NCBI GenBank assembly: GCA_000004985.1
Contig: GG738918.1
Source: Naegleria gruberi
Lineage: Eukaryota
DNA: 64,000 bases
Reading direction: 5' to 3' (one strand)
This document shows, piece after piece, positions 3,514 to 62,700 of the stretch. How positions within the stretch are numbered: the first letter of the stretch is position 1; the number at the start of each line of letters is the position of its first letter. Position numbers and translations under genes: made by a program. The notes beneath the pieces are model-generated. The model was not told the DNA's origin. It did no database searches and worked only from the letters and a program-made list of their open reading frames with translations.

Positions 3514-6204
3514 TTATCTATCAAAGCTTTTAATTTCCATATTTACTTTTTTATCCAAATTGGTAATTGCTTCTGATATAATTGTTTTTACTAAAAATGG
3601 TTCAAAATATCTACGCATTGTGTTACTATTATTTTTGAATATTACTGAAAAATTATTAATGATATTCTTGGCTTGATCCATTAGATTATTTGTTTTCAAA
3701 TATTGTGCTAAATGTGTACCAATTAAACTTTCCTTTTTAGGTGGTTGTAATGCCGTAATAGATGAAAAAATCAAAGCTCTATCAATCATTTCATCATCGA
3801 GTGAAAACCCACATCGTGAAGAATATCCATTCTGATCTATATAAATATTACTCTTATTTTCTTTAACTTCTAATATACATCTAATAAAATTATCATATAA
3901 AATACTATTTAGTAAATTATTCTTAAATTGTTGAGATTTTAAAAGAGTAAATTCTTGAATGGATGATATTGAAATTTCATTCAATGATTTTGGAATAGTT
4001 ATAAAACCACTTTCTATTCCAATTGGATAATATTTAATTTTACATGAATCATCTTCCATATTTGGAAAATTGTTATCAGTTGTATCATTAAATAATTTTG
4101 AAATTTCCATAAAATTATTAAATAATAATGAATTATGAACAGTTCTTTGATTTTTGTAGGTGAAAAAACGCATTATTATTTCCTCTCCATTACAAAGTTT
4201 AATTTCCAAATTTATAAAATTCACATTTCTACTAATTTGGTGAATTCCTTGTTTAATTTCTTTCATTGTAAATGGCATGAATATTTGATTTTCAATATTC
4301 AAATAATTTTGTTTCATATCATAAAAATAATCCAAAAATAAACATTGATTTCTAATAATTTCAATTTCATTCATATTCATCATTTTCACAAATTTCATTA
4401 ACACTAATTTACAAATAAGGTAATGAGATTCTGATTTGAGTAACCAAAATAATTGATTTCCAAATACTTTAGATTTTATACATCTAGTGATAAGATATTC
4501 TGATAACAATCCATTTTCATTCTCATATTTAATACATTGAATGAGAAACGGTAAAATATAAGAAAATATTTCGTCCTTAGTTTCGTCTAAATATTTGAGT
4601 AGTGTTAATTTTGAAAATATGCCAATTTTAGAAGAGAATAACGTGAATAGTTCCATCACATTATTTGGTTTCTTCCATTTTTCCATGATTTGATTAGCTC
4701 TAAATAGTACCATTGGAGTTTCGAATGAAATTCCAAGCAGAAATGGAACAAAATGTGAAGAATCATTTACATTCCACTTGTTATTTTCTAAAATAGTCTC
4801 CAATTTCAAATCATTTTCATCTTCAATTAAATTTGGTTTTCTATCTAAATAATACTTTACAATACAATCATGAGTAGGAAATTCAATTTCAAGAGAAAGT
4901 TCTGAATTTTTTGTATTTTGTAAAAGTTTAACATTTCCTTGAATTAATTCCAAATTTGAATCAAACACTGAACATTCAAAATAGTTGGGTTTCATAATCT
5001 CAATTCTTTTAAGAATTCCAGTCTCTAAATCTTCTCTATAACAAACAAGTGAAAATTTGATAGAATAGTCACATGAAAATTGTGAAATTTGAGTTTCGAA
5101 TATAATTTCTTCATTCCATTCGAGTGGTATTTCTATATTTTGGAGAGGAATGATTTTAGTGTCGTGAATTTCATTTTTCTTTTCATTTGAAATTATTGAA
5201 CATTCAATTGAAAAGGAAGTGAAATTTCCATATTCGAATAACAAATCCCTAAATGAAAGTCCATGAACTTGTTTTATCACAACACTCATTCTCTTATTAA
5301 AATCAAATGATGATGATGATACAATATTATTATCTATCAATTTTTCATTATTCATTTCAAATTTCTTTTCAAAAATTGAATCAAGAAATGAAATATTACT
5401 TTCAGTCAATTCTCTTTCATTTTCTAAAAGACAATTACAATTCACATAACTAATTTGATTATTATTGACAAGTCCACATAAAATATTTCTATCATTTCTT
5501 GATAATGTCTTGTTATATTTCATGTTTAAATATTTCAATTTAGGAAATGAACTTATAATTGGAATTACATTTCCATTTAGGTAATTATTAGATAGATCTA
5601 ATTTTGTCAAGTTATTACAATTGAATTTTGTAAATAATTGAATAAAATCTTTAGAATAAACTGAACAATCTGGAATTTCCAAATTAGTTAAACTTTCACA
5701 ATCACAAATATTCTCAATTAATTTGAATGAATTGGAAGTTTGAGATCTTAATTTTAAACTTTTCAATTTGAATGGTTTAAATTCTGTGTTGGGGTTTCTA
5801 AATTTCCAAATAGTATCACCTGAAATGGAAAGTTTTACCAAATTAGTCAATTCACATTTTAACAATTCTGAAAAGTTTTCTGTATTTCCATTTATAATAT
5901 TCAATTCTTCCAAATTATTAGAAATTCTTGAAATTTCTTTGAAATTTACAGTACTGTCTATTAGAGAAAGTGATTTCACTGTCAATGGAATTACATTACT
6001 ATTTATAGTAACTCCAACTAATTTCAGTTTTCTCAAATTAGTATAATCCAAATGATATAATTCTATTGTTGAATTGTTTTTACAGCAAATTACTAATGAA
6101 TAAATTTGATGTTTGATAGATTGACCAATTACTTCAACTGCTGAATTAAATTTTACATCAATTGCCAAATTGACCAAATTAGGTAATGTCATTCTACTAT
6201 TCAT
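3514..6204 (-). CDS. leucine-rich-repeat region plus C2-like, helical and PI3K/PI4K-like catalytic-domain-like C-terminal module; apparent pseudokinase
   Basis: Many LxxLxLxxN repeats in the first ~330 aa. Later, FGNQLFWLLKSE resembles the PIK helical/kinase boundary (F.FW.LK.E). KIKYYPIGIESGFITIPKSLNEISISSIQ matches the PI3K pattern L.MLPYGCLS.GD.GLIE.V..S.TI..IQ. Where the DRH catalytic loop and DFG are expected, the sequence reads ENKSN and SSRCGF, and the GDDLRQD box is absent. Confidence 0.55.
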   Translation of the reverse strand: MNSRMTLPNLVNLAIDVKFNSAVEVIGQSIKHQIYSLVICCKNNSTIELYHLDYTNLRKLKLVGVTINSNVIPLTVKSLSLIDSTVNFKEISRISNNLEELNIINGNTENFSELLKCELTNLVKLSISGDTIWKFRNPNTEFKPFKLKSLKLRSQTSNSFKLIENICDCESLTNLEIPDCSVYSKDFIQLFTKFNCNNLTKLDLSNNYLNGNVIPIISSFPKLKYLNMKYNKTLSRNDRNILCGLVNNNQISYVNCNCLLENERELTESNISFLDSIFEKKFEMNNEKLIDNNIVSSSSFDFNKRMSVVIKQVHGLSFRDLLFEYGNFTSFSIECSIISNEKKNEIHDTKIIPLQNIEIPLEWNEEIIFETQISQFSCDYSIKFSLVCYREDLETGILKRIEIMKPNYFECSVFDSNLELIQGNVKLLQNTKNSELSLEIEFPTHDCIVKYYLDRKPNLIEDENDLKLETILENNKWNVNDSSHFVPFLLGISFETPMVLFRANQIMEKWKKPNNVMELFTLFSSKIGIFSKLTLLKYLDETKDEIFSYILPFLIQCIKYENENGLLSEYLITRCIKSKVFGNQLFWLLKSESHYLICKLVLMKFVKMMNMNEIEIIRNQCLFLDYFYDMKQNYLNIENQIFMPFTMKEIKQGIHQISRNVNFINLEIKLCNGEEIIMRFFTYKNQRTVHNSLLFNNFMEISKLFNDTTDNNFPNMEDDSCKIKYYPIGIESGFITIPKSLNEISISSIQEFTLLKSQQFKNNLLNSILYDNFIRCILEVKENKSNIYIDQNGYSSRCGFSLDDEMIDRALIFSSITALQPPKKESLIGTHLAQYLKTNNLMDQAKNIINNFSVIFKNNSNTMRRYFEPFLVKTIISEAITNLDKKVNMEIKSFDR

Positions 6205-6207
6205 CTA

Positions 6208-6681
6208 TTCACTATATATTTTATCATCAATACTAAACAGTGATGAAATATCCAAAGATTTCAACTTGTAAAAATATGTAATAATAATATTTAATCCATA
6301 ATAATCCAATCCACTATTTTCTTTCAATGTTAAACTTTTTAAATTTTCATAAAATTTAAAATTTTTCATAATTTCCAAATCAGCATTTGAAAATGAACCT
6401 GTTAAACTTGAAATCCTATAAAACAATCTATTATTTTGAATAGCAGTTATAAAATTATTGATTGGATCACAATGATGATCTTTACGTGATGAAAATCTTG
6501 AAAATAATTTGTGTTTCTTTTTAATTTCAATTTCAAGTTTGGAAAAAGTTGATGCGAATTTCCACTTCTTACAAGTGTGAGAAATTATTTGGAGAATGAA
6601 TTTGGAGTGGAGAAAGGAAAAGATTTCAACCAACATTTCTGTTGGCAGGTTATTAATAATGAGAGAAGATGTTAGTGACAT
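6208..6681 (-). CDS. F-box domain N-terminal segment; the ORF ends at an in-frame TAG at 6205..6207 and is directly followed by the LRR/PI3K-like ORF
   Basis: N-terminus LPTEMLVEIFSFLHSKFILQIISHTCKKW is a cyclin-like F-box. Leucine-rich repeats (LKSLTLKEN..LKSLDISSLF) begin before the stop. The same frame continues after the single TAG. Confidence 0.6.
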
Positions 6682-7098: not shown

Positions 7099-7218
7099 GG
7101 CTACGGCCATATCACGATGAATGCACCTCATCCCGTCCGATTTGAGAAGTTAAGTATCGTCGAGCCACATCAGTACTGAGGTTGGAGACAACTTGGGAAC
7201 CTGTGGTGCTGTAGTCTT
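7099..7218 (+). rRNA. 5S ribosomal RNA gene
   Basis: GGCTACGGCCATATCACGATGAATGCACCTCATCCCGTCCGATTTGAGAAGTTAAGTATCGTCGAGCCACATCAGTACTGAGGTTGGAGACAACTTGGGAACCTGTGGTGCTGTAGTCT matches the conserved 5S blocks (ACGGCCATA, CATCCCGTxCGAT, AAGTACT, GGGAAC..GGTGCTGTA), is about 119 nt long, and is followed by a T-run. Confidence 0.85.
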
Positions 7219-7481: not shown

Positions 7482-7940
7482 ATGCAATTATTTGTCAAGA
7501 CACTCACTGGAAGAACTATCACTTTGGAAGTTGAATCTAATGATTCAATTGAAAATGTGAAAAGAAAGGTACAAGATAAGGAAGGAATTTCACCAGATCA
7601 ACAAAGACTCATCTTTGCTGGTAAACAATTGGAAGATGGCAGAACTATTAATGATTACAACATTCAAAAAGATTCAACACTTCATTTGGTATTGAGATTA
7701 AGAGGAGGAATGCAACTCTTCGTAAAAACCTTAACTGGAAAGACCATTACTATCGAAATGGAATCAAACGACACTGTTGAGAATATGAAACAAAAGATAT
7801 TTGATAAGGAAGGTATTCCTTCAGATCAACAACGTTTGATTTATGCCGGTAAACAATTAGAAGATGGCAGAACTATTAATGATTACAATCTTCAAAAGGA
7901 TTCAACTGTGCATTTAGTATTGAGATTGAGAGGAGGTTAA
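7482..7940 (+). CDS. tandem di-ubiquitin-like protein: two divergent ubiquitin-fold repeats, each ending in RLRGG
   Basis: ATG at 7482 in an A-rich context. Repeat 1 is [76 protein letters not shown]. Repeat 2 is [76 protein letters not shown]. They differ from canonical ubiquitin at about 11 and 16 of 76 positions. K48, K63 and the GG tail are retained. The ORF track's upstream start at 7437 is probably leader. Confidence 0.85.
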
Positions 7941-11036: not shown

Positions 11037-12248
11037 ATGAGAAAACGATCGAGTAGTGGGGGCGGAAGTTCTTCTCCTCAAAGTTTTACTTTCTGTGGTG
11101 GTGGTGATATTGAGAGCAGTTGTAAAACACCATCAATTTTAAAACCACTTGAAATTAAAACAAAGATAAAATCATCATTATCATATAATTATTCACCATC
11201 ACCTACTAGTGATGAATTAAGTAAAGATATGATAAATATTAAACAATTTTCACCCGATGATATTATAATAATAGATAAAATTGCATCAGGTGGATTTGCA
11301 GAAGTTTTTAAAATTCAAATTCATTCAACTATTTATGCAGGAAAGAGAATGTTAAAAAGTAGATCACAAATACAAAGAAATGTTGATAAATTTGCTAATG
11401 AATTAGTCAAGATGAATAGGATTTTTCAATTAGGATGTTCAAGAGTATTAAAACTTGTTGGTTATTGTTTTGATAAGGAAAATCAAAATTATTGGATTGT
11501 AACTGAATTTATCAATGTTGGAGATTTATATTCAATTATTCATTGTAAAGAACAAACTTTAAAGAGTCATCATTATGGATTAGAACGTATTAGAAATGAA
11601 TATTCAAAATTAATTGAATTAATTCATAATGATATGAATGTTAAAATTAAATTAGCTCTAGATATTGCTAAATGTATTGATGAACTACATTCATTAACAC
11701 GTTATGCTCATCTAGATGTGAAATCATTGAATATTCTTGTAGATGAAAATTTACAAATAAGAGTTGGAGATTGGTGTGATGCTAAACTAGTAGATGAATC
11801 AAGAGAACATTATCTCACTCCATTTCAACCACATGGTACAATATATTGGATGGCTCCTGAAATTGTTAAACAAAATGTATTTTGTCAAAAATCAGATATT
11901 TATGCTTTATCAATAGTTTTTACTGAATTATTAATTTTAGGTAAACCTTATCCTGGATTAAATGTTTTAGATGTTAAGGAAAAATTAGAGAGACCTATCA
12001 TTTCTAATCCAGCCAATAATAATAATACTGATAATACTAATTCTGATAATCAAATCAATAATACTGATAATATACCATATCGTATGAATATTATTGAAAT
12101 ATTGGAACAAAAGGGTTGTGATATAACTAATCAATGTAGAAATTTCATATCACTCATTGAAGATATGTGGAAAGAGGATGTTTCAGAAAGACTCTCTTCT
12201 AAACAAGTTGTAGAAAGATTATCTAATTTATTAGAAAGTGATGAATGA
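11037..12248 (+). CDS. protein kinase (TKL-like)
   Basis: Gly-loop IASGGFAEVFK, VAIK-like AGKRM, catalytic loop HLDVKSLNILVD, DWCDAK (DFG position), and GTIYWMAPE activation-segment motif. Confidence 0.75.
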   Translation: MRKRSSSGGGSSSPQSFTFCGGGDIESSCKTPSILKPLEIKTKIKSSLSYNYSPSPTSDELSKDMINIKQFSPDDIIIIDKIASGGFAEVFKIQIHSTIYAGKRMLKSRSQIQRNVDKFANELVKMNRIFQLGCSRVLKLVGYCFDKENQNYWIVTEFINVGDLYSIIHCKEQTLKSHHYGLERIRNEYSKLIELIHNDMNVKIKLALDIAKCIDELHSLTRYAHLDVKSLNILVDENLQIRVGDWCDAKLVDESREHYLTPFQPHGTIYWMAPEIVKQNVFCQKSDIYALSIVFTELLILGKPYPGLNVLDVKEKLERPIISNPANNNNTDNTNSDNQINNTDNIPYRMNIIEILEQKGCDITNQCRNFISLIEDMWKEDVSERLSSKQVVERLSNLLESDE

Positions 12249-20299: not shown

Positions 20300-21730
20300 A
20301 TGAACCAACCTCTCCCATCATCTTTACTGGAGAATTTAAATAATCCTGATAACAAGGATGGTTTAAAAACTGTTCCCGATCATGAGAAGAGAGATTATTC
20401 ATCGGTTAAAATTCAAGACATGTTCTATAATAATTGTGTTCCTCTATTTAGGAGTCCTTATTTACATGAATTATATAGTGGACAGGCAGATGATGAATTT
20501 ATTGATTTGGATCAACAACAGGAAGCTGAGATTTCTCAACAACATCAACAAAATTATTTTCATCAATTAAATTCATTCAGAGATTATGAAATTGAATATG
20601 ATGTGATTGAACAGGCAAAGATTGCTGTTTGCATTCCTAACAGAGAGTGGAATGGTGGATTATTAATTCATTGTCATGGACATAGAGCTAAGGGAATTCC
20701 TCTTCAGGCAGATTTGAATCATGATAACATGCCAAACACTTTCAGAGAATTGATTAGCCAAGGCTGGATTGTTTCAATGACTTCATATAGAAGAGAAGGA
20801 ATAATATTGAAAGATGCAATTTTGGATGTTAATAATTTGAGAAATTATGTGGAGGAAAAACATGGACAAATTAAATGTTGTATTCTGGAAGGAAGATCAA
20901 TGGGAGGAGCAATCGTGACATTTATTAGTGAACTCCATCCACATTTATATGATGGAGCTGTTTGTATTGGTGCTGCACTGAGAGTAGACCAGAAAGAAGA
21001 ACCTCTTCCTCATCTTGTTTTACAAAACACTCCTAAATTTCCAATTATTGTAAGTGAAGTTGCAACTTTAAGGTTCTAATGTTTATAGTATTTGACAAAT
21101 ATTAGTGAATTAGGAGAACCTTCGAACTATATTGAAAGGGCAAAGAATAATTCCCTTAAAGAACAAGATATCATAACCCCTAGCTTATGGACAGTCTTTA
21201 GAGAGGGACATAATTTAGTTACAGAGCTCGAGAGAATGTCCGCATTCCAAGCCCTAATTTCTTGGATACGATTCAAAAGTAATATAACAATGAAAGTCAA
21301 TGAGGCTTGTACACTTCCAGTAGCTATTCCAAACTCTGAAGTAGAATTTACTGACTCGGACCCATCTTCAAAAGAAGGAGCTTGGGGTAAAGTCAACCAA
21401 TTATACATCTATGGATCATTTTGTATCAATTTCACAGAAAAAGACTTTGAGAAATTAGGAATTACACAAGGAAAATACTTTACTTTCAACATTTTGACAA
21501 AACAACAGGGTGTCAAGACAGTTAGTGCATCATTTGGATCTTTCCCATTTATTAAGCAAGCAACTGAAGTTGAATGGATTGCATTTGTTAATCCAGTTGA
21601 TAATTACATTGTATTGCATATTAATTCTTACAAATTTACAAACGAATCTAAAAAGATGGGAATTTCCCTTAATGATGCTATTTTTGTTGAAAAGGTCAAA
21701 CCGCTGCCTAAAAGGAAAAATAAGAATTAA
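20300..21730 (+). CDS. alpha/beta-hydrolase-fold protein; exons 20300..21049 and 21089..21730
   Basis: 39-nt GTAAGT..TATAG intron 21050..21088 joins the two ORFs in frame. Nucleophile-elbow motif GRSMGG. No closer family assignment. Confidence 0.55.
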
Positions 21731-25397: not shown

Positions 25398-26798
25398 ATG
25401 TTTAAACCACTGAAATATGTTCATCCACTAGCAGGACTTTCGTTCAAACTCTTTCGTTCTTCTCCTTTGAAGAATAAAACCCATAATACTACTACTACTA
25501 CTAATTTGAAGAACAACCTTAATAATACTATTAAACAATTATCACAAGATCTTTATGATCTATTTGATCCTTCTAATATGAAATGTGTTAGAGATTTTGA
25601 AACTTGTGATGAGTTAGAATTTCTATTAAGTAATAAAAGTACAATCTATTTTAATAGTGAAGAATTGGATAATTATAAAACAAGTATAAAATCAGAACAA
25701 GAAAATATTCACAAACAAGAAATATTCAATTCAATTAATTTTACTAATAGGAATCCAAAATGTTTACATGAAGTTGATTATTGGTTTATTGATAATTTGT
25801 TATATTTTAATTATCGTGAATGGTCACATGAATATACTCTTTCTATTTTACCATTTAGTAGATTATTACCAGAAGTTATTGAAATTCTAAAAATAGATGG
25901 TAATATAAATGGAAATATTTTAGATTTTATTGTAAATAAATTACAATTACAAGAAGAAAAAATAATTTTAATTAGTCAAATTAAAGGATTATTACCAAAA
26001 TTATCAACTTTTGATATTGAAGTATTAATTGAATGGATTATTAGAAATTTATTTTTTAAAACAGATATTTCTAAAATTCCACAATTTTTAAAAGAAATTA
26101 AAATTAATAATCAAATAATTAAACAAGAAGATGAAATTAAAGATTATAATTTAATAATTAATGAAGAATTAAAAACATATATATTATCATGTGCAAGTGC
26201 TAGATTAATTGATCATAAATATAAAGAAGCTTATCATGAATGTCTATATTTAGAAAAAAACAATTATGATAAAAATATTATTAAAAGTATTCCTAAATTT
26301 TTAAAAGACAATTTAAAATATCATATTCCAAAAGCGGAAAATAATGATAAAATTATTACTATAAATGAAAGACCTTATAATTTTAGTCAAACTCATAAAA
26401 TGATTAATTTTACAATTAATTTTACAGATGATGAAATAACATTTTTAGATTTTGAACCCATTTATTACATGATGGCAAAAATAATTGATTATTACAATAA
26501 GAATATTAGATCTATTGAATGGCCAACTAATTTGGATAATTTAAATGATGATGAATCTAAAATTGATGCTATTTTTGATGATTTATTTTATTATAAAATT
26601 ACAGTTTCACAATTATTTAGATGGATTGAAAGTATTGAATTACAATTTAGTGAAGGAAAACAAATTTGGTTTCATTTTACAATTGTAATTAATAGTCAAT
26701 TGTTTCCTTTTATTGATATGAGTTATGGAACAATGCAAATGGTATTTTCTAGAGGACATGAAAATATGACTTGTTGTTTTACTGATGTTCAATTTTAA
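25398..26798 (+). CDS. hypothetical Ile/Asn/Lys-rich protein
   Basis: 466-aa ORF with ATG in an A-rich context. No motif recognised. Confidence 0.4.
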   Translation: MFKPLKYVHPLAGLSFKLFRSSPLKNKTHNTTTTTNLKNNLNNTIKQLSQDLYDLFDPSNMKCVRDFETCDELEFLLSNKSTIYFNSEELDNYKTSIKSEQENIHKQEIFNSINFTNRNPKCLHEVDYWFIDNLLYFNYREWSHEYTLSILPFSRLLPEVIEILKIDGNINGNILDFIVNKLQLQEEKIILISQIKGLLPKLSTFDIEVLIEWIIRNLFFKTDISKIPQFLKEIKINNQIIKQEDEIKDYNLIINEELKTYILSCASARLIDHKYKEAYHECLYLEKNNYDKNIIKSIPKFLKDNLKYHIPKAENNDKIITINERPYNFSQTHKMINFTINFTDDEITFLDFEPIYYMMAKIIDYYNKNIRSIEWPTNLDNLNDDESKIDAIFDDLFYYKITVSQLFRWIESIELQFSEGKQIWFHFTIVINSQLFPFIDMSYGTMQMVFSRGHENMTCCFTDVQF

Positions 26799-26876: not shown

Positions 26877-28238
26877 ATGGGTGAAGTGATTCATGTACAA
26901 GTTGGAGGGTGTGGCAATCATATTGGTTATCAATTTTATGAAAGAATTGCCAAACATGAACATTCAATTCTTCCCAATGGTGAAAAAAGCCTAACTCGTA
27001 ATCATGAAAATATTTACACTGATATTGATGAAGAAAATTACTATACAAATGTATTCTTTGAAGAGAGTAAGAGTGGTCGATGGTCTCCGAGGGCTGTTTT
27101 AGCAGATTTGGAGCCTTATTCCATAGATCAAATACAACAATTAGAATATGGAAGAATATTTAAGAGCGAATATAATGCAATTTATCAGTATGGTGCTGGA
27201 GGAAATTGGGCAAAAGGGCACTATACGATTGGAGCTGAATGTGTGGATAATGTTATGGAGGTAGTGAGGAAACAAGCTGAAAATTGTGGGAACTTACAAG
27301 GATTTCAATTGATGCATTCGTTGGGAGGAGGATCAGGATCAGGTTGGGGTACTCTGGTGATATCTAAACTGAGAGAGGAGTATCCTGATAAGATTGTTTC
27401 TAGTTGTTCTGTTTTTCCTTCTTTGAAAGCATCATCTACAAATCCTGTTGAGGCCTATAATTGTGTTTTGGCTTTTCACCAATTGATTGAGAATACAGAT
27501 TTCGTATCATGTTTTGATAATGAAGCTCTGATTGAAATACAATCAAAATTGAATCTAACCAATGAAGGTTTTAGTGCAATTAATAGAATAATTGCAAAGG
27601 TTATGTCTGATGTAACCTGTTCATTTCGGTTTCCTTCCCATTTAGGGTATAATTTAAGAAAGCTTGCCACCAATTTGATACCTTTTCCTAGACTCCACTT
27701 TGCAACAATTTCACACACTCCAATTAGTGCTGATAGTAATAATTCCTCAAAGAATATATCAGAACTATTCCAAAATTTGACATCTCCAAATAATGTCATG
27801 TGTGGCTGTGATCCTAGAAGTGGTCGGTATATGGCTGCCATTGCTTTATTCAGAGGCTCTATGACATTGAAAGAAGTGAATGATGTTGCTTCATCTGTTT
27901 CCAATAAGAATTCTTCTAATTGGGTTGATTGGATGCCACCCAATTTAAAATCAAATGTTTGTAAGAAGAAATCAGGTGATTTTGAGTCGGCTACTCTCAT
28001 TGCAAACTCCACATCTATTCGATTCTTGCTCACCAATATTGAAAATCGATTCGATAACTTATTCAAAAGGAAAGCGTATCTTCACAACTTGTGTTATGAA
28101 GGAATGGATGAAATGGAATTTTCAGAGGCACAACATAATCTTAATGATATCATAACTGAATACAAGTGTTACGGAGACGAAATTCTTGACGATTTCGATG
28201 ATAGTAACCTTGATCTTTCTTCTAAGGACTTGATATAA
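26877..28238 (+). CDS. divergent beta-tubulin-like protein (tubulin/FtsZ GTPase fold)
   Basis: Collinear with beta-tubulin end to end. MGEVIHVQVGGCGNHIG (T1 loop, canonical GQCGNQIG). GAGGNWAKGHYTIGAE. LGGGSGSGWGTLVISKLREEYPD (canonical GGGTGSG). NEALIEIQ, LRKLATNLIPFPRLHF, AYLHNLCYEGMDEMEFSEAQHNLNDIITEY. Roughly half of positions are conserved relative to canonical beta-tubulin. Confidence 0.8.
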   Translation: MGEVIHVQVGGCGNHIGYQFYERIAKHEHSILPNGEKSLTRNHENIYTDIDEENYYTNVFFEESKSGRWSPRAVLADLEPYSIDQIQQLEYGRIFKSEYNAIYQYGAGGNWAKGHYTIGAECVDNVMEVVRKQAENCGNLQGFQLMHSLGGGSGSGWGTLVISKLREEYPDKIVSSCSVFPSLKASSTNPVEAYNCVLAFHQLIENTDFVSCFDNEALIEIQSKLNLTNEGFSAINRIIAKVMSDVTCSFRFPSHLGYNLRKLATNLIPFPRLHFATISHTPISADSNNSSKNISELFQNLTSPNNVMCGCDPRSGRYMAAIALFRGSMTLKEVNDVASSVSNKNSSNWVDWMPPNLKSNVCKKKSGDFESATLIANSTSIRFLLTNIENRFDNLFKRKAYLHNLCYEGMDEMEFSEAQHNLNDIITEYKCYGDEILDDFDDSNLDLSSKDLI

Positions 28239-35377: not shown

Positions 35378-36462
35378 TGTTGATCGATTAAAATCCATCT
35401 ATTCAATCTGTTTTTTGATCAATCTATCAAACAATCGATCATGATTAATCAACAATTTCAATCATATTGAATAAAGACTTGATGTTATTTGAAAAGGCTC
35501 AATTTTCAACTAATTATCAAAAGATGTTGTTTGATTTCTTGTGATGTTTCAAAATAAAGAACTTTAAAACACAAAAAGTTGTTTTTCCAAGTTGCTTAAA
35601 ATCATGTTAGAAGCCAATCTCCTCCGATGTGGCATTTGAATATAAATTTCTTATAATCCTTTCTGAGCTCAATGACAGAGGGTTGCTCCCTTTTTCCAAG
35701 AATATGTCAAGTGCTCACTCTTGATTTTAATTTGGGATATGGATATTGCAATATTACATAAGAGTGTTGGTTCTTGGTTAATGATTGCTTACACAAGTTT
35801 GGACGTTGTTGCTCCTGAACATGTGGTTTTGTTCAAAGAACACCTTATCAAATTTGCTTTCATTCTCTCCCTTTGTCATTAATTAAGGCAGTGAATACTG
35901 GAAACCTTTTTTCAAGTGTTGTATTTATCATGTCAAGTTCTTGAGAAACTCGATTGATGTAGTAGAAGATCCACTAGTAATTCAGTAAGATACAAATCTA
36001 TCTAAGTTGTAACCCAGCATTTCTTCGAAAATGTCGAATTCATTGTAAAGAAATTAAAACATTCAAACTTAATGAATCGTTCACGATACCACCCCCACTT
36101 GATATGGAATTAAGTAATACCAATAAGGTGATTTTCAAGACACTCTATACTGACATCCAACCAAGGGTTGATTTAAAATGAAAAAAGGAGCAATTTGGAG
36201 AAGCCATTTCCAAGCTTAGTGATATAATTTAATTAAGGGAGAATGAAATCTGTGACTCTAAAAATAATTGAAAAACCAAAAAACAACTCTCAAAAAGGCA
36301 AGAAAAAAATCAAACCTGAACTGGAAGAACAAAAGAAATCATCAAAATCAAAGTCTCAAGCTCAGTTCAATGAGGATTTCGAGATATCTGATGAAAACAT
36401 TGATAGATCGATCGATTGATCGATCAATTAATTGATAAAATTCTATGTTTCATCCATTCAAT

Positions 36463-36486
36463 CGATCATTTTCCATCTCGATCAAT
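36463..36486. repeat. short direct repeat with ATCGAT/TGATCA palindromic cores, copy 2
   Basis: See copy 1. Lies in the leader of the 36550 gene within gatcgatcgattgatcgatcaattaattgat. Confidence 0.5.
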
Positions 36487-36549
36487 CATCGATGGGTAAA
36501 AAAAATCCATCTAAAAATTTATGTCATGGTTTCTCCAAGATCAAAAAAA

Positions 36550-38961
36550 ATGCCAAGATCATCCACTCCAACCAAAAGGAAAACCATTCAACAGCCATTA
36601 ATATTTCAACCCACTTTGAAGAAAACTAAATCATCCGAAACAACGTTGAATTCTCCTATTACTATTAGTGATGATGGTGAGAATGAGGATTTATTGTTAT
36701 CAGCTGATGGAGATCAAGCACATGATGATGATATTGAAATATCAACAGAGACTGTTTCGGATTCATCAAGCAAATATTCAATTATTAGAACACCTATTAA
36801 TGATTCATCGACAGTGGATGAATTGGGATTGGAAAGTGTTGAAGCTCATGAACTTCAACAATATTTCAATGCTGAGAAATATTTAGCTAAAGAAAAAGGT
36901 AAATGTAAAAAGATTTATTGCATAGATAGAGGATCTTCATTTACAAAGGGTAACAAGTTTGATATTTTAGAAAAGAGAGTCAAACCAACTATATTAAAAT
37001 TTGGACATAAGGAAAAGACACAATTTTTACCTTCTCAAACATTTTACAATTTACAAAAAGGTCAAGTGAAGATGGGTAAATTTGAGGTTAGTAATGAATG
37101 GGAAGAATTGGAAAATTTGAAAAAGATATTCATGGTGAGTGAGTTATTGGAAATTGGATTAAAATCTGAGAAGAAGAAACTTAGAGTATCTCACATTATT
37201 TATTTAATGATTAGAGATTTAATATCTCAATTATTAACAACTAAAAAACAAGATTCTAATTATTTGGAAGGTATTGGTGCATGGATATTTACATGTCCAT
37301 CAGGAACAAGTGTATTTACTAAATTAATATTTAGAAATTGTATATTTAAAGCATATAATAGTTTAAACATTAATGAAAATAATCCATTACAAATAGATGA
37401 CATATATGTTATTGAGGAATGTACATTATTGAAATATTTTGCCAACAATCAAGAAAAAACATCTACAATGTTTGTTGATTTGGGTCATTTAACACTTGAT
37501 GTCGTTGTGATGGATTTAATTGATGGTGAATATATTGTAACATTTAAAAATGGTGAATCTAGTGGAATGTCACTCATACATCAATTATTAAAAGATAATG
37601 GATTAGATTCAATTAAGGAAATGGAAAATTTATTTGATAATTATCATGATTCTAATGAATTACCACCATCTTTATTACCTCTTAAAAATCAAATTGATGA
37701 AACATTGAAAACTATTACAAAACCTCTATGTATGATGATATTACAAAAGCAAGTAGATTCTATTCACTTTTCAGGTGCTATTACACGAGTTGCTTATTTT
37801 CAAAGAAAATTACAAGAAAATATTAGTTATGTACGTTTACAAAATATTAAGAATGAGCTACTTCCATATTTAAAAGAAGAATTCAAGAATAGAGATATAC
37901 CTATTATTGAATTTTTATGTGAAACTACAGGTGAAAGTGCTTTACTATCAGGTGCAGAAGAAATGATTAATTGTTCTTTAATGAAAATTTCACAAAATGA
38001 ACTCGATTGTAATGTTCCAATTATATTTAAGGAGAAATCTATTAGTGAACAAGTACTTAGTGAACCCTCAATATCATCAATACCAGAAATGAATGAACAA
38101 ACACTACCAACTACTATTGATTGTTTATTATCATCTATTAGTTATAATGACAGTAATAATATTGAGCAGTATGTACCTGCCATGCTATTTGACCATTGCA
38201 ATAGTGGAAGGGTCGAAAAAAAAATGTTATTGGGAAATGTTTTACTAGACATGAATATTAAACAAGATACTGAAATATTTTTAATCAAGTTTAGTCCACT
38301 CATTGATACTAAATTAATATCAACTATTGATTATGAAAATTTTGAAAAAGTGGGAATTATTGAATTCATTAGATTTACCAATTTAATCATTTGTTTTGAT
38401 TGTAATCACATTAAAACTACTACCAATTTACACTTTTATATGAAGTTGGATTTGGAAGATGATTTCTTATTAGTTAGAATTTATTATACTAAAGGTAAAT
38501 CCTTTTTTAAAACTATTACACGAATTGAAAGAAAAGGAAGAAATGAAAGAATTTCCATTAATGATTCTGCTCAACTAATTTTTAAAACAAAAGAAGATGA
38601 AGTAAGAACATGGTATGGTGTATATTATGATACTTTGAGTATTGTATCCAGTTTTTCAAGTATTTCCATTAAATATGCAGAATTAGAAAACGAAATTGGA
38701 GTTGAAAAAGCAAAGGGATTACATGTTGGTAGCAAGCAGCTATCTATTCCAAGTATTGGATCAAAAGATAAGGAATTTGTAAGAAAACACCTTTCTAAAT
38801 GTTCTGTTTGTCAATGCGAAATTAAGAAGGTGCATGCTTGTATTTCTTATAACAAACTACCAATATTTAGAAAAGTATTTGATGATAATTCCATTAATCT
38901 TGGAAATTGTTGTAGTCCTTGTTATAGAATCTATAATGATTTAAAAAAGGAAGAAAAATAG
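36550..38961 (+). CDS. hypothetical large protein with a basic N-terminus and a C-terminal Cys-rich zinc-ribbon-like tail
   Basis: ATG at 36550 in aaaaaaaaATG context. The ORF track's upstream start at 36445 lies inside a repeat-rich leader. C-terminus CSVCQCEIKKVHAC...CCSPCYRIY. Confidence 0.45.
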   Translation: MPRSSTPTKRKTIQQPLIFQPTLKKTKSSETTLNSPITISDDGENEDLLLSADGDQAHDDDIEISTETVSDSSSKYSIIRTPINDSSTVDELGLESVEAHELQQYFNAEKYLAKEKGKCKKIYCIDRGSSFTKGNKFDILEKRVKPTILKFGHKEKTQFLPSQTFYNLQKGQVKMGKFEVSNEWEELENLKKIFMVSELLEIGLKSEKKKLRVSHIIYLMIRDLISQLLTTKKQDSNYLEGIGAWIFTCPSGTSVFTKLIFRNCIFKAYNSLNINENNPLQIDDIYVIEECTLLKYFANNQEKTSTMFVDLGHLTLDVVVMDLIDGEYIVTFKNGESSGMSLIHQLLKDNGLDSIKEMENLFDNYHDSNELPPSLLPLKNQIDETLKTITKPLCMMILQKQVDSIHFSGAITRVAYFQRKLQENISYVRLQNIKNELLPYLKEEFKNRDIPIIEFLCETTGESALLSGAEEMINCSLMKISQNELDCNVPIIFKEKSISEQVLSEPSISSIPEMNEQTLPTTIDCLLSSISYNDSNNIEQYVPAMLFDHCNSGRVEKKMLLGNVLLDMNIKQDTEIFLIKFSPLIDTKLISTIDYENFEKVGIIEFIRFTNLIICFDCNHIKTTTNLHFYMKLDLEDDFLLVRIYYTKGKSFFKTITRIERKGRNERISINDSAQLIFKTKEDEVRTWYGVYYDTLSIVSSFSSISIKYAELENEIGVEKAKGLHVGSKQLSIPSIGSKDKEFVRKHLSKCSVCQCEIKKVHACISYNKLPIFRKVFDDNSINLGNCCSPCYRIYNDLKKEEK

Positions 38962-43826: not shown

Positions 43827-46800
43827 TTATTCTAAAAGTCTTCTTCTTCTATCGATATCATCATCCTCATCATCACTTGTAAAATTGCTAACATCATCCT
43901 CATCTTCCTCTTCATCCTCATCAGCTATTGCTGGTATTGACACTTCCTCAATATCTGCCAATAATTTAGCTTTAGTGAAAACTGTACCAATACCACGTCC
44001 AAAATATTCACAAACCAGAGAATAACCATCCAACTTCTTGGTATTAAGTTGCTTAAAGAAGGATTCGTGTTGTTCACTCGACTCTTCGAATTTTCTCTTT
44101 CTTTGGAGAATATCTCTGTGCTTATCAGAACAAACTCTACATTCACCTTCATTACCAACAAGGAGACATCTTTGATGGTATGAGTGATTACACATGAAAT
44201 GTACAGCAGGCAAGTCCAATTGAGCATTACAGAAAGTACAAGTGGTAGCTTGGAAAGTTTTGGCACTGGTTTGTAAATCGTAAATTTCCTTTCTCATTTG
44301 AGCAGTTTCAGTTTGGAATTCCTTGATCTTTTCTACATCTTCTCTTATCATTTCTTGTTCTTTTTGAATTTTAGAAATCAGATAGTCCTTTACAGAATAG
44401 AGTTTGGTCTTTTCATTCTTACCAAGAATTTGAACAACCAGTAATGGAGGTAAAATTTCATCCTTTTCAATCTTTTCTAATACAATAGCTAATTCTTCTT
44501 CAACATTATCATCCAATGTGGCAAAATATGTGAGAACTTGAACCCACAAATTTGGATCCTTGTCACCATATTGATTAACAGAGGCGATTACATTCTTGTA
44601 ATCACGTTGCTCCATATAATATTGGATAATATAATAGTGAAGACCCAAAGTATCATAAATCTTGAGTACACCTTCTTTAAAGTTTTGTGATTGGACAAGA
44701 ACAAGAACGTGCTCCTTATCATAGTTAGATTGTGGATGGTCGAGTGTATAAAGCAATCTATCTTTAAAGCTCAAATTGGCAATATCTGTGCTTGGTGGCT
44801 GAATTTCATATCTATCAGAAATGCCTTGAGTTTGCTCAAGTTCTGGTCTTTTCTTAGAATCAGTATCCAAATATTTAAGATAAAGTTCAATGAGCGTATT
44901 GTACACAACCTTGGAATGTGATGTATCTGGTCGAAGAGTTCTCCAAATAACATTTTCCAAAAATATCATTAACCAGTATTGATCCTTACTTGGGAAGCAA
45001 TGAATATATGACTCTGGTTTTGGTTTAGCATGTTCAATGTGTTGATTATTATACATATCTTCATATCCGGTAGTTTTAACAATTTGAGATTCAAGATTAG
45101 CAGATGATTGTTTCAAACCTAGAAGTACATTCAGAATACCCCCTTCTTTCTTCTTTTCTGCTTGGTTGCTTGAATCATTGGAGTTTGGTATAATTCTAAG
45201 CTTGTAATTATCAATGATTCTCTTTTGAGTTAACTTGATATCACTATCCAAAACTCTATTTGTTTCAGCAGGGTGAATTGGGAAATATTCTGTACACAAT
45301 CTTATGAGAGCGTTAGTAGTCTCTTTTGGTAAATGTGAAATGAGTGTTTTACCATAGGTTTTCAGATAACTTTCAGCTTCAGGTAAGGCAAGAGATTCAA
45401 TATATTTGAGCGCTCTTCTAAAGTTCTCTTTAGAATCAACCTTCTCGCCATTATCCTTGTCCAAATTATCTGTATCAAAGTCCTCCAAGTGAATCTTAAT
45501 GTACCAATCGTGTTGTTTGTGTTTCATGGCCAAAATGAGGGCATGTTCCTTGTAGCCGGCTTTTCTACAAACTCTAATAGCTGTCTCTACATCGTACATA
45601 AGCTTATCTTGCATACTGATAAACTTGTCGAGTTTTTCCTTTCTTTCATCCTTCAATTTGGTGTAACAGTTTAACAAGAGGGTTGTGTGATCAGAGGTGG
45701 CAAGACGTTTTTCGTGAAGGGTTTCAAGATATTCTGTAAGGTTACGAATTCTGTTTGCATCCAAGAATTTTCTGATAACATAGGATGGTTCCAATCTACC
45801 AATAGTTCTACAAAATTGTTTCATAGCTCCATCATAATCTTTCTTTGAATACAAGTGATCACCATATTGTTTTGAAATTTCAAACAAGTAATTACTGTCA
45901 AGTTGTTCACTATCAACTAAACTGATGGCAATCGAATAAAAGTTCTTTTGTAAAAGCAATTCCAACTTGGATTGGGTATCTTTTTCTTCCAAAAGGAACA
46001 TTTGTTGTTCAGATTTGTTTTCATCAATATTCGACAATAAAAAGACATTACCCCATTCTTGAAGAATATGTGTAATGTGTAATTTGTCACTCGAATATCT
46101 AAAGGCAATATACTTGTTTTTCAAATCATAAATAGTAATAACTTGTTGAGATTTGCTACTGGTTGTGTTAATATCTGAACTAATAACAATTAAATAATTT
46201 CTGAACCAATGTGACAAGATCTTTTTACCTTCAAAAGCAAAACAAGATCCTTTTCCTTCAGGTTTAAAGAACCAAACAGCAGATTTAGAAGAAACCACAA
46301 AATCTCCATCATTACTCAAAGTACTACATCCAACTTCACATCCAATAGTGTCATCTAAAATTACTTTTGATTGTTCAAGTGCTCTTTGTGATGTACTGCT
46401 ATTAGTATTAATAGAATATTTAAAAACTTGAGTAAGTGAACAACAGAATAAAGTATAATCATTAGGTGAATTACCATATCTCTTAAATCCTAATCCTGTT
46501 ATTCTCTCATTTGGAGCACCATCCAATAAAAACACTTTGTGTGATGACTTTCCTCCTTGTTTTGTAAAATCACCTTCAAATATAATAATTTTACCATTTC
46601 CTAAACCAAGTGCAATACAATTAAAATCTTGATTTGCTTCAAAACAACACACCGGATAAGGTTCCATATCTTTGATCTGACTAAATATCTTGATATCTCT
46701 TACTAATTGATATTGACCAAAACTTGTGTGACCTTCCTTTGTGTGTTCTTTATACTTGTCAAGAGAATAAATTTTCAATACATCCTGATAGGCTTCTCCA

Positions 46801-47041
46801 CCATCATCACCAACAACAACTAAACAATTAGATTTAGCAATATGTTTGATGTGATTAACTCTTGCTTCAAAGGCTTTACATTGACGTGTATTTAAATTTT
46901 TATCCATAACATGAAAAGTACCACGATTATCTCCGAATATAATATTACTTCTTCCGCTAGTACAACAAGTTACATTGGTCTGAGAGAAAAATTTTGATGA
47001 TTTCTCATCACTCACTGTATGCTTGTCAAAGAAGTTGAATT
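43827..47041 (-). CDS. VPS11: Vps11 (HOPS/CORVET core subunit) with C-terminal RING-H2
   Basis: ATG at 47041 (MWKKFNFFDK, as in metazoan VPS11 WRRFVFFDKE). N-terminal beta-propeller, clathrin-heavy-chain-repeat region, C-terminal CTFCNAQLDLPAVHFMCNHSYHQRCL...CRVCS RING. Confidence 0.8.
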
Positions 47042-47205
47042 TCTTCCACATTTTTTTTTGATGAAAAGATTTTTTAGTTTTTAAAAATTGATGATCCCGA
47101 ATAGAATATGCAATTCTGTCGTTCATGAAACTGTGATGATTAGTAATGGATTAACAAAATGTTTAAAGTCAAGCTATTGAGAATGCAAAGATGACAGTGA
47201 AGGGT

Positions 47206-54095: not shown

Positions 54096-55157
54096 CTATT
54101 GATTAGTAGTATCAAAGGAGCCAGGACTAGCTAGGCAAACCAAATGCATCGAGGAGTAATCAGAAAAGAGTAATCTTCCTCCCTTATTGTCTATATGAAT
54201 ACCAATTGGATTAATTATTGAGCCATGAGTAATTTTCTTGACGAGTTCTCCTGTTGGGGTGAACACTTGAATGGCATTGGCAAAATCAGATGCATATATA
54301 TAATCATTAGAGTAGTCGATTGACAAGCCATAAATATCCTTAAATGTTCCAAACGAATTCACTACTGTGTAAGAGTCACCATCTTGTCTCAACACAAATA
54401 TCTTTCTTTTATCACAATCTCCAATAATTAAATCTCCCAAGCTATTGAATGATATTGACCAAGGACCAAGTAAATCCGAGGCAAGGCTTATGCTTCTCAA
54501 AACTGAACCAGTATTCGAATCCAAAAATTGAATTTGTTTCTCAGTCTTCTCACAAACCAATATCAGATTCTGATTGTATGGTCTATATTTTATGGTTAAT
54601 CCCTGTGGATCAGTTACTTTTCTTGTCCATTCCTTTATATCTGGAACTGCAAATTTATCTTTCGAATCACACAACAATGTAGACAATTTACATTTTACAA
54701 CTCCAAATTTTGTGTTGGTAAAATACAAGTACAATTCTCTAGAATCAATAATCTCAATGGCCATATATCTTGGTCGAACAGAATCAGAATGCCAATCAAT
54801 TACTTTCTTTTGTTTTAAGGTATTATAATCAAATACAACAATTCTATTCTTCAATTGATCACAAACCAAAATACACTGATAATCAGTTGAAATTTTAACA
54901 TCCAATGGATAGGACATGTTGTCTCCATTCAATTTTCCAACATTTGCATCAAAACGTTGATAATCAAATCCAACATATTTTGCATATTTTCTCATCTTTG
55001 ATTGAAGAAATCTAAATAATGGTCGTGTGTGCTCTAAATCCTGCTCCGAATCGTCAATTTTTGAAACGTGATCAAGAAGATACATCCGATCAGAAGTAAC
55101 AAAATCGACAAGTTGCACCACAACACATCCAAGGTTAGTTATCAAGTTTGTCGACAT
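54096..55157 (-). CDS. NHL-repeat-like beta-propeller protein
   Basis: Repeated blocks such as IIGDCDKRKIFVL, IYASDFANAIQVF, GIHIDNKGGRLLFSDYSSMHLV are typical of NHL/six-bladed propeller repeats. Confidence 0.4.
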   Translation of the reverse strand: MSTNLITNLGCVVVQLVDFVTSDRMYLLDHVSKIDDSEQDLEHTRPLFRFLQSKMRKYAKYVGFDYQRFDANVGKLNGDNMSYPLDVKISTDYQCILVCDQLKNRIVVFDYNTLKQKKVIDWHSDSVRPRYMAIEIIDSRELYLYFTNTKFGVVKCKLSTLLCDSKDKFAVPDIKEWTRKVTDPQGLTIKYRPYNQNLILVCEKTEKQIQFLDSNTGSVLRSISLASDLLGPWSISFNSLGDLIIGDCDKRKIFVLRQDGDSYTVVNSFGTFKDIYGLSIDYSNDYIYASDFANAIQVFTPTGELVKKITHGSIINPIGIHIDNKGGRLLFSDYSSMHLVCLASPGSFDTTNQ

Positions 55158-59764: not shown

Positions 59765-62700
59765 ATGGATCCAAAGAAGAAGGGTGAATTATTAGCCCCA
59801 ACTTTTGACAAACTTCAAAAGTTTTCTGAAATGATTACAGCTGCCCTATTCACAGCTCCAATTCATTGTCAGATATATAAACAAAAACTTAGACAAGCTG
59901 CTGAGGTGGAGAGAACAGTCGAGTCTGAGAATCAGGTACAATTGGTTTCTGCCTCCTCACCAACACCAACCACTAATCTTTTATCGACACCATCAGGTTT
60001 ATCAGGTGGAAGTGTGAGTTCTCCAGTGTTGGCTGGTACCTCTCCATTGATTGTTGGTGTTTCCACGTTGAATATTACTAGTGGTGATGATGGTGCTTCT
60101 TCTAATAATAATTCGGCAACATCACCTTCATCTTCATCTTCTACAACAACAACAAATAATTTGCAACCTTCTACAACAACAACATCAGCATCAGCATCAA
60201 CAACAACAGAAGTTGTAGCAAATAGTGATGAAAAGTTAGTTGAGAATAGTTTGAATGGTGGTACCACCACAGTAGAGGCCTCTGCAACAACAACTCCTTC
60301 TATTACTACTACAACAACAACAACAACAACAGCAGCAAATATTGTTGAAGAAGAAGAAGATAAATTTGAGGCTAGAAAAATTGAGGTCGAAGTTGATTGG
60401 GAGAGTTTTAACGAATTGTTTAATACATTGTTTAATGAGGGAGCTCCTGAGGTGATTGATACAATTTTGAATTCATTCCTTTCAAAGTCTTGTGCTGCCT
60501 CTCTGATTGGTACTTTAATATCACAATACTGTAAACCACCACAAAATCGTAAGTTATTTTCTAATAATTGGTTCATGTGATGTATATAATAATAATTATA
60601 TGTTTAATTAATTAACAATATTGTATATGAATACAAAACGACAAAACGACCACTATTGATCTCGTATATATTATTAAATTGTATTCATCCACATACTAAT
60701 TGTATCTCTCGTTAATCATGATAATACAACAATAATATCAAAATGACAATATTAAATTAATACTAATAATATTGTGAATAATAATAATAATAACAACAAA
60801 TAACAACAAATTATAATAGATAATGAAAAATCAAAACACGTATATATTAGAGATTTTCTTCAACAAAACTTGAAAAAGTACGTGATTAAATACAGTGATG
60901 ATCCACGTGATGTTGGATATTATAAAGATGGTGTTATTGTTGATGTGGTTGAAATTGAAGTTACTCAAGATGAAACTATTCAATGGATATTTAGAGATAT
61001 AACTAAAAACCTTGACAGATGTACAGATATTCAACAATTTATCATTGAAAAGTATTATATTCCAGAGTTTGAGAGAAGAATTTTGAATGAATTTTTGCAT
61101 CCACTCAAATTACAAGTGAATTGGGATCACATGAAATATGCTGCCTTTGATTATCCACGTGCAGTTGAGAGAATTTACAAGGAACAATCACAATGTGTTC
61201 TAGAACAAGTTTATTTAGCAATGAGTGATATTTGTGCATATGAGGAGGATGATCTAGTTGATGCTCTTTCACTTGGTTTAACAACAATTGCTATTACTCT
61301 TCAACCAAGTCCACACTCTGGCACAGGAGAAAGACCAAAGAAGGATTTTGACATTCATGAAGCAACTAGAACACTTACATTACGTTTGGTTTTAGAAGGA
61401 CATGATATGAATGGCATGTTCTTTAGAGATGAATTAAAGCCAATTATCAAATTGGCTGGTTTGTACAGTACAGATATTACACCACTTTTCAAATTTGAAA
61501 TTTTAGCTTCTGCAGCTCAATTGTATAAAGTACGCGAATATGCTGATTTGAGTGGTATGAAGAGATTACTTTCTAGACCAGATTTGAATTGGTGGACTCC
61601 AACTGAAGTTGAAAAATCAATCATTGATAAGGCACGTGTCTTTATCAATGAAAATATTCGTAGACGTGACTCAAAGAAGAGTGGTTCACAACATTCCAAC
61701 GATGAAAATATCATGAATAATTATGAAGATGATGGTATGGGAGAGGATGAAGGTTATGATGACGATGAAAATATGAATAATCCATATCATGAAGAAATTA
61801 TTAAGGGATGGCATGTTATCAAAGTTAACAAACATCAAATCAATCAAGATCGTTATTTAATTTTGACTGACAAGGCATATTGGACATTAAAATATGATGC
61901 CAAGACAGGTTTTGATCCAAAACACTTCAAGAGACACGATATTTGCAATTTCTATTTCACAGAACAAGGTGATATTGAAAATACAAAGAATGGTGCCATT
62001 CAAGCTCTTAAAGTTTACTTGCATGAAAAGAGAAAGAAGGGCATGATTTCTGCTGAAGAATCTGCTGCCATTGTAGGCAATGGAAGAAAGGGTTCTATCA
62101 GTGTTCGTGCCTCTATGAAGTTTACAACCTCTGCTGCAGGTCAACAATTTGCCTTCTTGCAAACATTGAGTTATCAATTATTGCAGGACAGTGGCATTCC
62201 TAGAACTCGTGTGAAAAAGAAGAAGGCCGAAAGAGCACGACCAGAAAGAAATAAGGATGTAACTGAATATGCTAGTTTATTCTTACCTCACAGTGAGGAA
62301 AAGGAGTTTGATGTTGAGGATATTAAGAGTATTCTGACGGAAATTTCTTGGTGTTTGTTTGCTGTTGCCAATGCAAACTCTAAGAGAATTCACCCTAACT
62401 ATAAGGTCATCGAGCCATTCTTCTCAATCAAAGATTTTACAGTTCCAAAATCAAAGTGGTTCTCTCCATTTGTTAACATGTTTAAGAGTCCTAAGAAAAC
62501 ATCAACAACAACTACCACCAAGGAGAAGAAGATTGCCCGTAAGGATCACGGAAAATCTGGACATACTGATCCAACAAAAGAAGATGAAGAAGAAGGACAA
62601 ACTTCAACAACTTCTGGAGAATTCGTCACAAAGAAACAACCACTTCCAGTTGACAAACAACAACATACCAAACCAATTCTTAAAATCAGACAAGAAGAAC

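Follow-up and report, generated by a model that had tools for sequence, protein, structure and literature searches.

A 64,000-nucleotide (nt) stretch of Naegleria gruberi DNA (contig GG738918.1 of assembly GCA_000004985.1; hereafter the window) holds, at 3514..6681 on its minus strand, a locus of the F-box/leucine-rich repeat (LRR) type whose reading frame is interrupted by one TAG codon. Around this codon the minus strand reads ...GAT GAT AAA ATA TAT AGT GAA TAG ATG AAT AGT AGA ATG ACA.... The two open reading frames (ORFs) on either side, the predicted domains and a short repeat at the stop are as follows.

6208..6681 (6681..6205 with its stop), minus strand: upstream ORF of 158 codons, encoding the F-box and the first LRRs.
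6205..6207, minus strand: the in-frame TAG stop, codon 159 of a 1055-codon reading frame, aligned to Leu in the paralogs P0001 and P0004.
3514..6204, minus strand: downstream ORF of 896 codons plus TAA, in the same frame as the upstream ORF, encoding the remaining LRRs, a C2-like beta region, a phosphatidylinositol 3-kinase (PI3K) accessory (PIK, helical) domain and a C-terminal region of ~280 amino acids (aa) without a recognised domain.
6197..6211, minus strand: perfect 7-nt direct repeat, TGAATAG-A-TGAATAG, the first copy of which ends in the TAG.
6547..6657, minus strand: F-box, residues 9-45.
5425..6399, minus strand: LRR region spanning the TAG (limits approximate), from weak Pfam LRR_4 matches, PDB profile matches and a structural model.
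4840..5307, minus strand: C2-like beta-rich region (limits approximate), from beta strands at model residues 306-452, at low confidence.
4423..4743, minus strand: PIK helical domain, residues 488-594 of the 896-aa ORF.

The coding frame contains one stop in 1056 codons, against 50-150 in the other five frames of the same DNA, and its 1055 codons show no second stop and no frameshift. A six-frame scan of the 64-kb window found no other site at which a single stop lies between two open runs of at least 100 codons. Because of these stop counts, the uniqueness of the split site and the gapless colinearity of two homologues across it, the stop-split frame is far beyond chance. The preliminary description of this DNA had proposed that a single TAG splits one continuous reading frame, and the sequence, the stop counts and the paralogs all bear it out. 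The upstream ORF measures 166 codons from stop to stop and its start context, ttaaagaaaATG, is A-rich, as in annotated genes of the window. The ATG at 6204, which opens the 896-codon ORF, is the codon right after the TAG. The gene has a GC content of 24% (usual coding GC in the window is ~33%) and is prone to nonsense change: a single step would turn 42% of its codons into a stop, and nonsense changes make up 6.2% of its possible substitutions.

Domain searches place an F-box at the N-terminus, with 30.6 bits for Pfam F-box-like at residues 9-42 (cut-off 24.3) and 25.0 bits for Pfam F-box (cut-off 20.5), and its core, LPTEMLVEIFSFLHSKF, is almost identical in paralog P0004. Pfam LRR matches in the locus stay below the cut-off, LRR_4 being weak; the family profile retrieves plant LRR receptor kinases from the PDB at E = 7e-9, and the LRR cores NLKSLTL, KLKSLDI and LPNLVNL keep a spacing of 26-27 residues on both sides of the stop. 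This unbroken spacing upholds the earlier claim that the LRR periodicity runs through the TAG, and the region downstream of the F-box reads as an LRR domain. For the 896-aa part AlphaFold gives a poor model (pLDDT 50, pTM 0.35), so its Foldseek matches carry little weight. The model shows an alternating strand/helix solenoid in the LRR region, and its matches to InlA, COI1 and a Toll-like receptor, with weak ones to PI3Kbeta and VPS34, fit an LRR plus PI3K-like layout.

The helical domain is recognised by Pfam PI3Ka at 48.1 bits and by family-profile matches to the helical domains of p110gamma and p110alpha in the PDB; hhalign aligns it to a genuine PI3K, P0012, with a probability of 98% over the helical domain only. 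In the region homologous to the C2-like segment, paralog P0002 scores 29.4 bits for Pfam PI3K_C2 (cut-off 26.4). Pfam gave no match to the PI3/PI4-kinase catalytic domain (PF00454) for the window protein or any of its paralogs, and the same Pfam scan gives true PI3Ks 171-205 bits for PF00454; hhalign showed no such domain either. The term 'PI3K-like' used in the preliminary description is therefore apt for the helical domain and for the C2 domain of one paralog, and unsuited to the catalytic domain, which is undetectable. The predicted architecture is F-box, LRR, C2-like, PIK helical and then the C-terminal ~280 residues of no recognised nature.

Two known groups of proteins resemble parts of this architecture. 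FBXL substrate receptors of SCF ubiquitin ligases (Skp2, TIR1/COI1) share what appears to be the same N-terminal order of an F-box followed by an LRR solenoid, and COI1 is among the Foldseek matches; the present locus differs from them by the C2-like, PI3K helical and uncharacterised C-terminal regions after the LRRs. We know of no FBXL protein with a C2-like region, a PI3K helical domain and an extra C-terminal region. Class I/III PI3Ks (p110, Vps34) are alike in the PIK helical domain, which is clearly homologous, in the PI3K_C2 domain seen in P0002, in the order C2, helical, C-terminal region and in the weak Foldseek matches to PI3Kbeta and VPS34. They differ in that the locus has no PI3_PI4_kinase domain (Pfam, hhalign), no Ras-binding or adaptor-binding domain, and an F-box/LRR N-terminus. 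The unusual fusion of F-box and LRRs to PI3K C2 and helical modules may be of interest to work on SCF ubiquitin ligation or on phosphoinositide signalling in Naegleria.

Exhaustive searching of 1.84 billion representative proteins with HMMER gave four strong relatives (E < 1e-10; P0001 to P0004) and one weak one (P0006), all from N. gruberi. They come from three loci, each on a scaffold of its own and none on that of the window.

Locus A: P0001, 963 aa, without an F-box; the closest paralog.
Locus B: P0004 (EFC37601), 450 aa, F-box and LRR, adjoining P0003 (EFC37602), 529 aa.
Locus C: P0006 (EFC40946), 136 aa, F-box, adjoining P0002 (EFC40945), 694 aa.

Searched against a collection of 5.8 billion proteins, the fused 1055-aa query returned a sole match, 44% identical. 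Because only N. gruberi proteins match at E < 1e-10 in spite of the N. fowleri, Willaertia and Acrasis proteins in that collection, the family looks specific to the N. gruberi lineage; the interrupted locus is its fourth paralog. P0002 carries the GenBank name 'phosphatidylinositol 3-kinase', which is not justified by a kinase domain and is misleading. A giant-virus origin of the low-GC F-box/LRR gene was considered and rejected, there being no viral relatives in the HMMER search or in a scan of viral contigs.

Loci B and C are each annotated as a pair of adjoining genes, an F-box gene and a PIK gene. Aligned with the rest of the family, the two halves of locus B meet seamlessly, the first ending in SIEILETKN and the second beginning with MIPFTENLHWNEE, where P0001 reads KKEIHKTRNIFPQSLSCLDWNEE; those of locus C lie 14 residues apart. 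At these junctions there may be further lesions or introns that were modelled wrongly; a recurring arrangement of pieces separated by stops is the least likely reading. A metagenomic contig carries a relic of the family from a related organism (P0011/L001 5246..5531; ENA ERZ929261, contig k127_245752). Here a stretch resembling the F-box N-terminus (SLIINNFPTELLVKILYF) runs directly into one matching residues ~765-822, which joins the F-box N-terminus to a piece of the PIK-domain end. The relic shares MMNMNEIEIIRNQCLFLD identically, and 145 nt of it are 89% identical to window positions 4284..4428. The TAG site falls outside it and its flanking genes are not syntenic with the window. It is a dead copy with an internal deletion. 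Scanning metagenome and viral contigs with the family profile gave no relatives, and the DNA pattern of the locus, with the TAG codon left open, had no match in the metagenome contigs.

P0001 and P0004 align colinearly and without gaps across the TAG, and both have Leu at its position. The window reads KLKSLDISSLFSIDDKIYSE, the stop and then MNSRMTLPNLVNL (immediately before the stop, KIYSE, and after it again MNSRMTLPNLVNL); P0001 reads KLKSLDIMESI-IDNQEYYKLMNSKMSLPNLVNL (locally EYYKLMNSKMSLPNLVNL) and P0004 NLKSLDIRRSKLSDNSICHELMNSKLSLPNLVEL (locally ICHELMNSKLSLPNLVEL). Identity to P0001 is 48.4% upstream of the TAG and 48.6% downstream, and reaches 53% at distances of up to 30 residues from it. 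Among the Leu codons of the gene TTG ranks second in use (35/122), and TTG to TAG is one transversion. On these comparisons of sequence the TAG is derived, and a single gene has been cut by one stop codon. This agrees with the preliminary description, which took the two ORFs for one F-box/LRR gene: paralogs read through the site and identity is equal on its two sides. It had named two separate genes in relatives as the observation that would speak for another view; none are seen at the TAG position, and loci B and C, which are annotated as split, are split elsewhere.

The immediate vicinity of an ATG and an intact downstream ORF nevertheless raise the question of a functional split, in which the locus gives two proteins, an F-box one of 158 aa and an LRR-C2-PIK one of 896 aa, the latter from the ATG at 6204 by UAGAUG termination-reinitiation or from an internal promoter. 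The annotation of loci B and C as an F-box gene beside a PIK gene, with ends that abut almost seamlessly, also speaks for it. However, the Met after the TAG is conserved in the paralogs (LMNS in both), which makes the ATG at 6204 an ancestral codon from inside the gene rather than a new start. The context of this ATG, agtgaatagATG, is poor and without the A-run that precedes annotated starts in the window. Eukaryotic reinitiation after an ORF of 158 codons is inefficient without special signals. The stop interrupts the LRR solenoid itself instead of falling between domains, and the other paralogs are split at other positions, near residues 330 and 500, which therefore mark no conserved domain boundary. 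We regard a functional split as improbable. A related and still less probable proposal is that the stop is tolerated or used across the family, three of the four loci appearing as an F-box piece abutting a PIK piece. If the other junctions also proved to be single in-frame stops, the family might use low-level readthrough or UAGAUG stop-start coupling, and one transcript would then yield three products: an F-box protein on its own as a decoy, an LRR-PIK protein lacking the F-box and, rarely, the complete SCF receptor.

Programmed readthrough, in which some ribosomes decode the UAG by a near-cognate tRNA to give the full-length F-box-LRR-PIK protein, had been offered in the preliminary description as one of three explanations, together with the advice to look for a TAG-readthrough context. 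The downstream frame is open and shows coding conservation, and AA before the stop (here GAA TAG) is said to favour readthrough in yeast. The stop itself is not conserved, both paralogs that cover the site having Leu. The 3' context is UAG-AUGAAU, with a purine (A) at +4, and conforms to neither CARYYA nor CUAG. No stable RNA structure was found directly downstream of the TAG: the 120 nt that follow it have a minimum free energy of -21 kcal/mol, against -18.2 +/- 2.95 for shuffled sequences (z = -0.94). The window contains no tRNA, hence no suppressor tRNA, and the titles and abstracts turned up by a literature search show no obvious precedent for readthrough in Naegleria. Known cases (tobacco mosaic virus UAG-CARYYA; murine leukaemia virus gag-pol, UAG plus a pseudoknot; metazoan UGA-CUAG) resemble the locus in an in-frame stop, UAG in the two viruses, with a long conserved ORF behind it; the locus lacks their defining context, their structure and the conservation of the stop. 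Readthrough is accordingly without support here, and we consider it very unlikely. The locus would bear on recoding biology only if the stop were decoded or exploited.

More general mechanisms would have the TAG spliced out with a very short spliceosomal intron or read as an amino acid throughout N. gruberi. Introns that short do occur in the window, where a 39-nt in-frame intron holding both TAA and TAG (21050..21088, plus strand, GTAAGT...TATAG) interrupts the alpha/beta-hydrolase gene at 20300..21730. Further short introns (~43-95 nt; donors GTAAGT or GTATGT) start at 9070 and 9195 on the plus strand and at 48900, 16015 and 12646 on the minus strand, which puts the convincing introns of the window at 39-95 nt overall. 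The preliminary description held that the only GT..AG pair spanning the TAG is one of 16 nt. That count was wrong, as 45 pairs of up to 200 nt span it, the in-frame ones including pairs of 42, 45, 69 and 72 nt. Its conclusion that the TAG is not intronic stands on other grounds: the likely introns of the window all begin with GTAAGT or GTATGT, whereas the candidates here begin with GTGAAT, GTATTG, GTTTAG or GTTGAA, and every in-frame candidate (at least 42 nt) would remove residues conserved in the paralogs (ID..Y..LMNSxMxLPNLVNL). A spliceosomal intron is rejected on both counts and is effectively refuted.

Reassignment of UAG would agree with the alignment of the TAG to Leu, and a code with UAG as Leu is known from one rhizarian. 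When the ORFs were re-called with only TAA and TGA as stops, though, a single mid-ORF TAG appeared in ~17,000 codons of long ORFs. TAG also ends the ORF at 54096..55157, which equals the annotated NAEGRDRAFT_74817 exactly, and the ORF at 36445..38961, where TAA follows immediately. With TAG used as a terminator and no multiple in-frame TAGs in the window, reassignment was rejected, and an intron or a changed code as a general mechanism is hardly credible. The stop, the homology across it and the derived codon are accompanied by no signature of an intron, of recoding or of reassignment.

The age of the lesion was approached through the rate of change of the interrupted copy. In Tajima relative-rate tests against P0001, with the other two paralog loci as outgroups, unique amino-acid changes number 80 in the interrupted locus and 85 in P0001 (outgroup locus B), and 64 and 76 (outgroup locus C). 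In columns where three of the four loci agree, the interrupted copy is the odd one out least often (21 times, against 26, 47 and 60). Relaxed constraint was not detected, there being no further lesions and no acceleration relative to P0001; the absence of acceleration argues against a long relaxed period and for a very young lesion. By our estimate, an unconstrained downstream ORF of 2.7 kb would acquire a second lesion after well under 1% neutral divergence. As such a lesion is expected early and none is present, the TAG should be very young, not real or not disabling.

The second of these possibilities is an error in the reference sequence, with a sense codon (for example TTG, Leu) in the organism, an intact gene and a miscalled TAG. 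One base change brings back the Leu of both paralogs, and the rest of the gene looks functional, its 1055-codon frame being open, its rate not accelerated and its halves equally conserved. The rest of the window looks clean, however: no other ORF is split by a single stop, the VPS11 and kinesin ORFs are intact, and five ORFs equal deposited proteins exactly. The TAG site is neither a homopolymer nor of low complexity, where errors concentrate, and a real nonsense change is likely a priori in a gene with so many codons one step from a stop and a family that is visibly decaying. An error is a real but distinctly less favoured possibility.

We favour a very recent and genuine nonsense substitution, which makes the locus a nascent pseudogene or a null or loss-of-function allele, with a probability of roughly 0.55. 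Of the three alternatives raised in the preliminary description, this one, a recent nonsense mutation or polymorphism, has the best support. It fits best because the gene is nonsense-prone and its family is young, species-specific and turning over, as loci B and C, which are split, and the L001 relic illustrate. The event would have been a single substitution, most simply TTG (Leu) to TAG, in a gene that purifying selection had maintained up to that point. With translation ending at residue 158, the product would consist of the F-box and about two LRRs and lack both the substrate-binding module and the PIK module. We infer that the organism really carries this TAG and that the shortened product has no function. 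The direct repeat at the site invites a further speculation: a T>A change at an ancestral TTG would have turned an imperfect repeat, TGAATTG/TGAATAG, into the perfect one, which hints at a templated mutation behind the TAG. The lesion might be heterozygous, since Naegleria genomes carry heterozygous single-nucleotide polymorphisms and have variable ploidy (PMC9928731), or it might be specific to the long-cultured axenic laboratory strain.

Several points count against a genuine nonsense substitution. The TAG base is known from one assembly. One lesion without relaxed constraint is equally expected from a base-call error or from a tolerated stop, whether read through or followed by reinitiation. 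The ATG directly after the TAG could in principle allow a separate 896-aa product. Neither the 158-aa nor the 896-aa ORF occurs as an exact sequence in the protein collections searched, and from this absence the locus appears to be without a deposited gene model.

A recent nonsense substitution would place the locus with young nonsense pseudogenes and segregating loss-of-function alleles in lineage-specific multi-copy families. It is like them in carrying a single disabling substitution against intact paralogs and in belonging to a fast-evolving family of one lineage whose other members are fragmented or relics; it differs in having one lesion and no measurable relaxation, which puts it at the youngest end of their range. 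The finding is real but ordinary, a premature stop in an unmodelled paralog, and falls into a familiar category, that of young pseudogenes and null alleles or else of assembly errors. It matters mainly for annotation, where the 3.2-kb, 1055-codon locus (3514..6681) deserves an entry as a disrupted copy, pseudogene or null allele, in a small family found in this species only.

The surroundings of the locus confirm that the DNA is nuclear and of the N. gruberi reference type. Five other ORFs of the window are exact N. gruberi NEG-M proteins from the same 222,118-bp scaffold, among them the two genes next below the locus (NAEGRDRAFT_74794 and 74795) and, above it, the diubiquitin gene (7482..7940). 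The VPS11 ORF at 43830..47126 is 100% identical to NAEGRDRAFT_81916, 84% identical to its N. fowleri counterpart and 73% to that of Willaertia magna. A 5S ribosomal RNA (rRNA) gene lies at 7099..7217 on the plus strand (Rfam, 102 bits), between the start of the F-box gene and the diubiquitin gene; the Rfam scan near the locus gave 5S rRNA only.

Low GC is also a feature of three other ORFs of the window. The ORF at 25398..26798 (plus strand, 466 codons) has a GC content of 21% and a GC content at third codon positions of 9%, with no Pfam match and no exact copy in the protein collection, and lies directly upstream of a divergent tubulin gene (26877..28238). Those at 11037..12248 and 36445..38961 are likewise well below the coding GC of ~33%; the latter (plus strand, 838 codons) has no Pfam domain and ends in the tandem stops TAG-TAA. 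At 59765..60580 (plus strand) and 59932..60576 (minus strand), two ORFs of more than 200 codons each overlap almost wholly on opposite strands, and it is likely that at most one of them is a gene.

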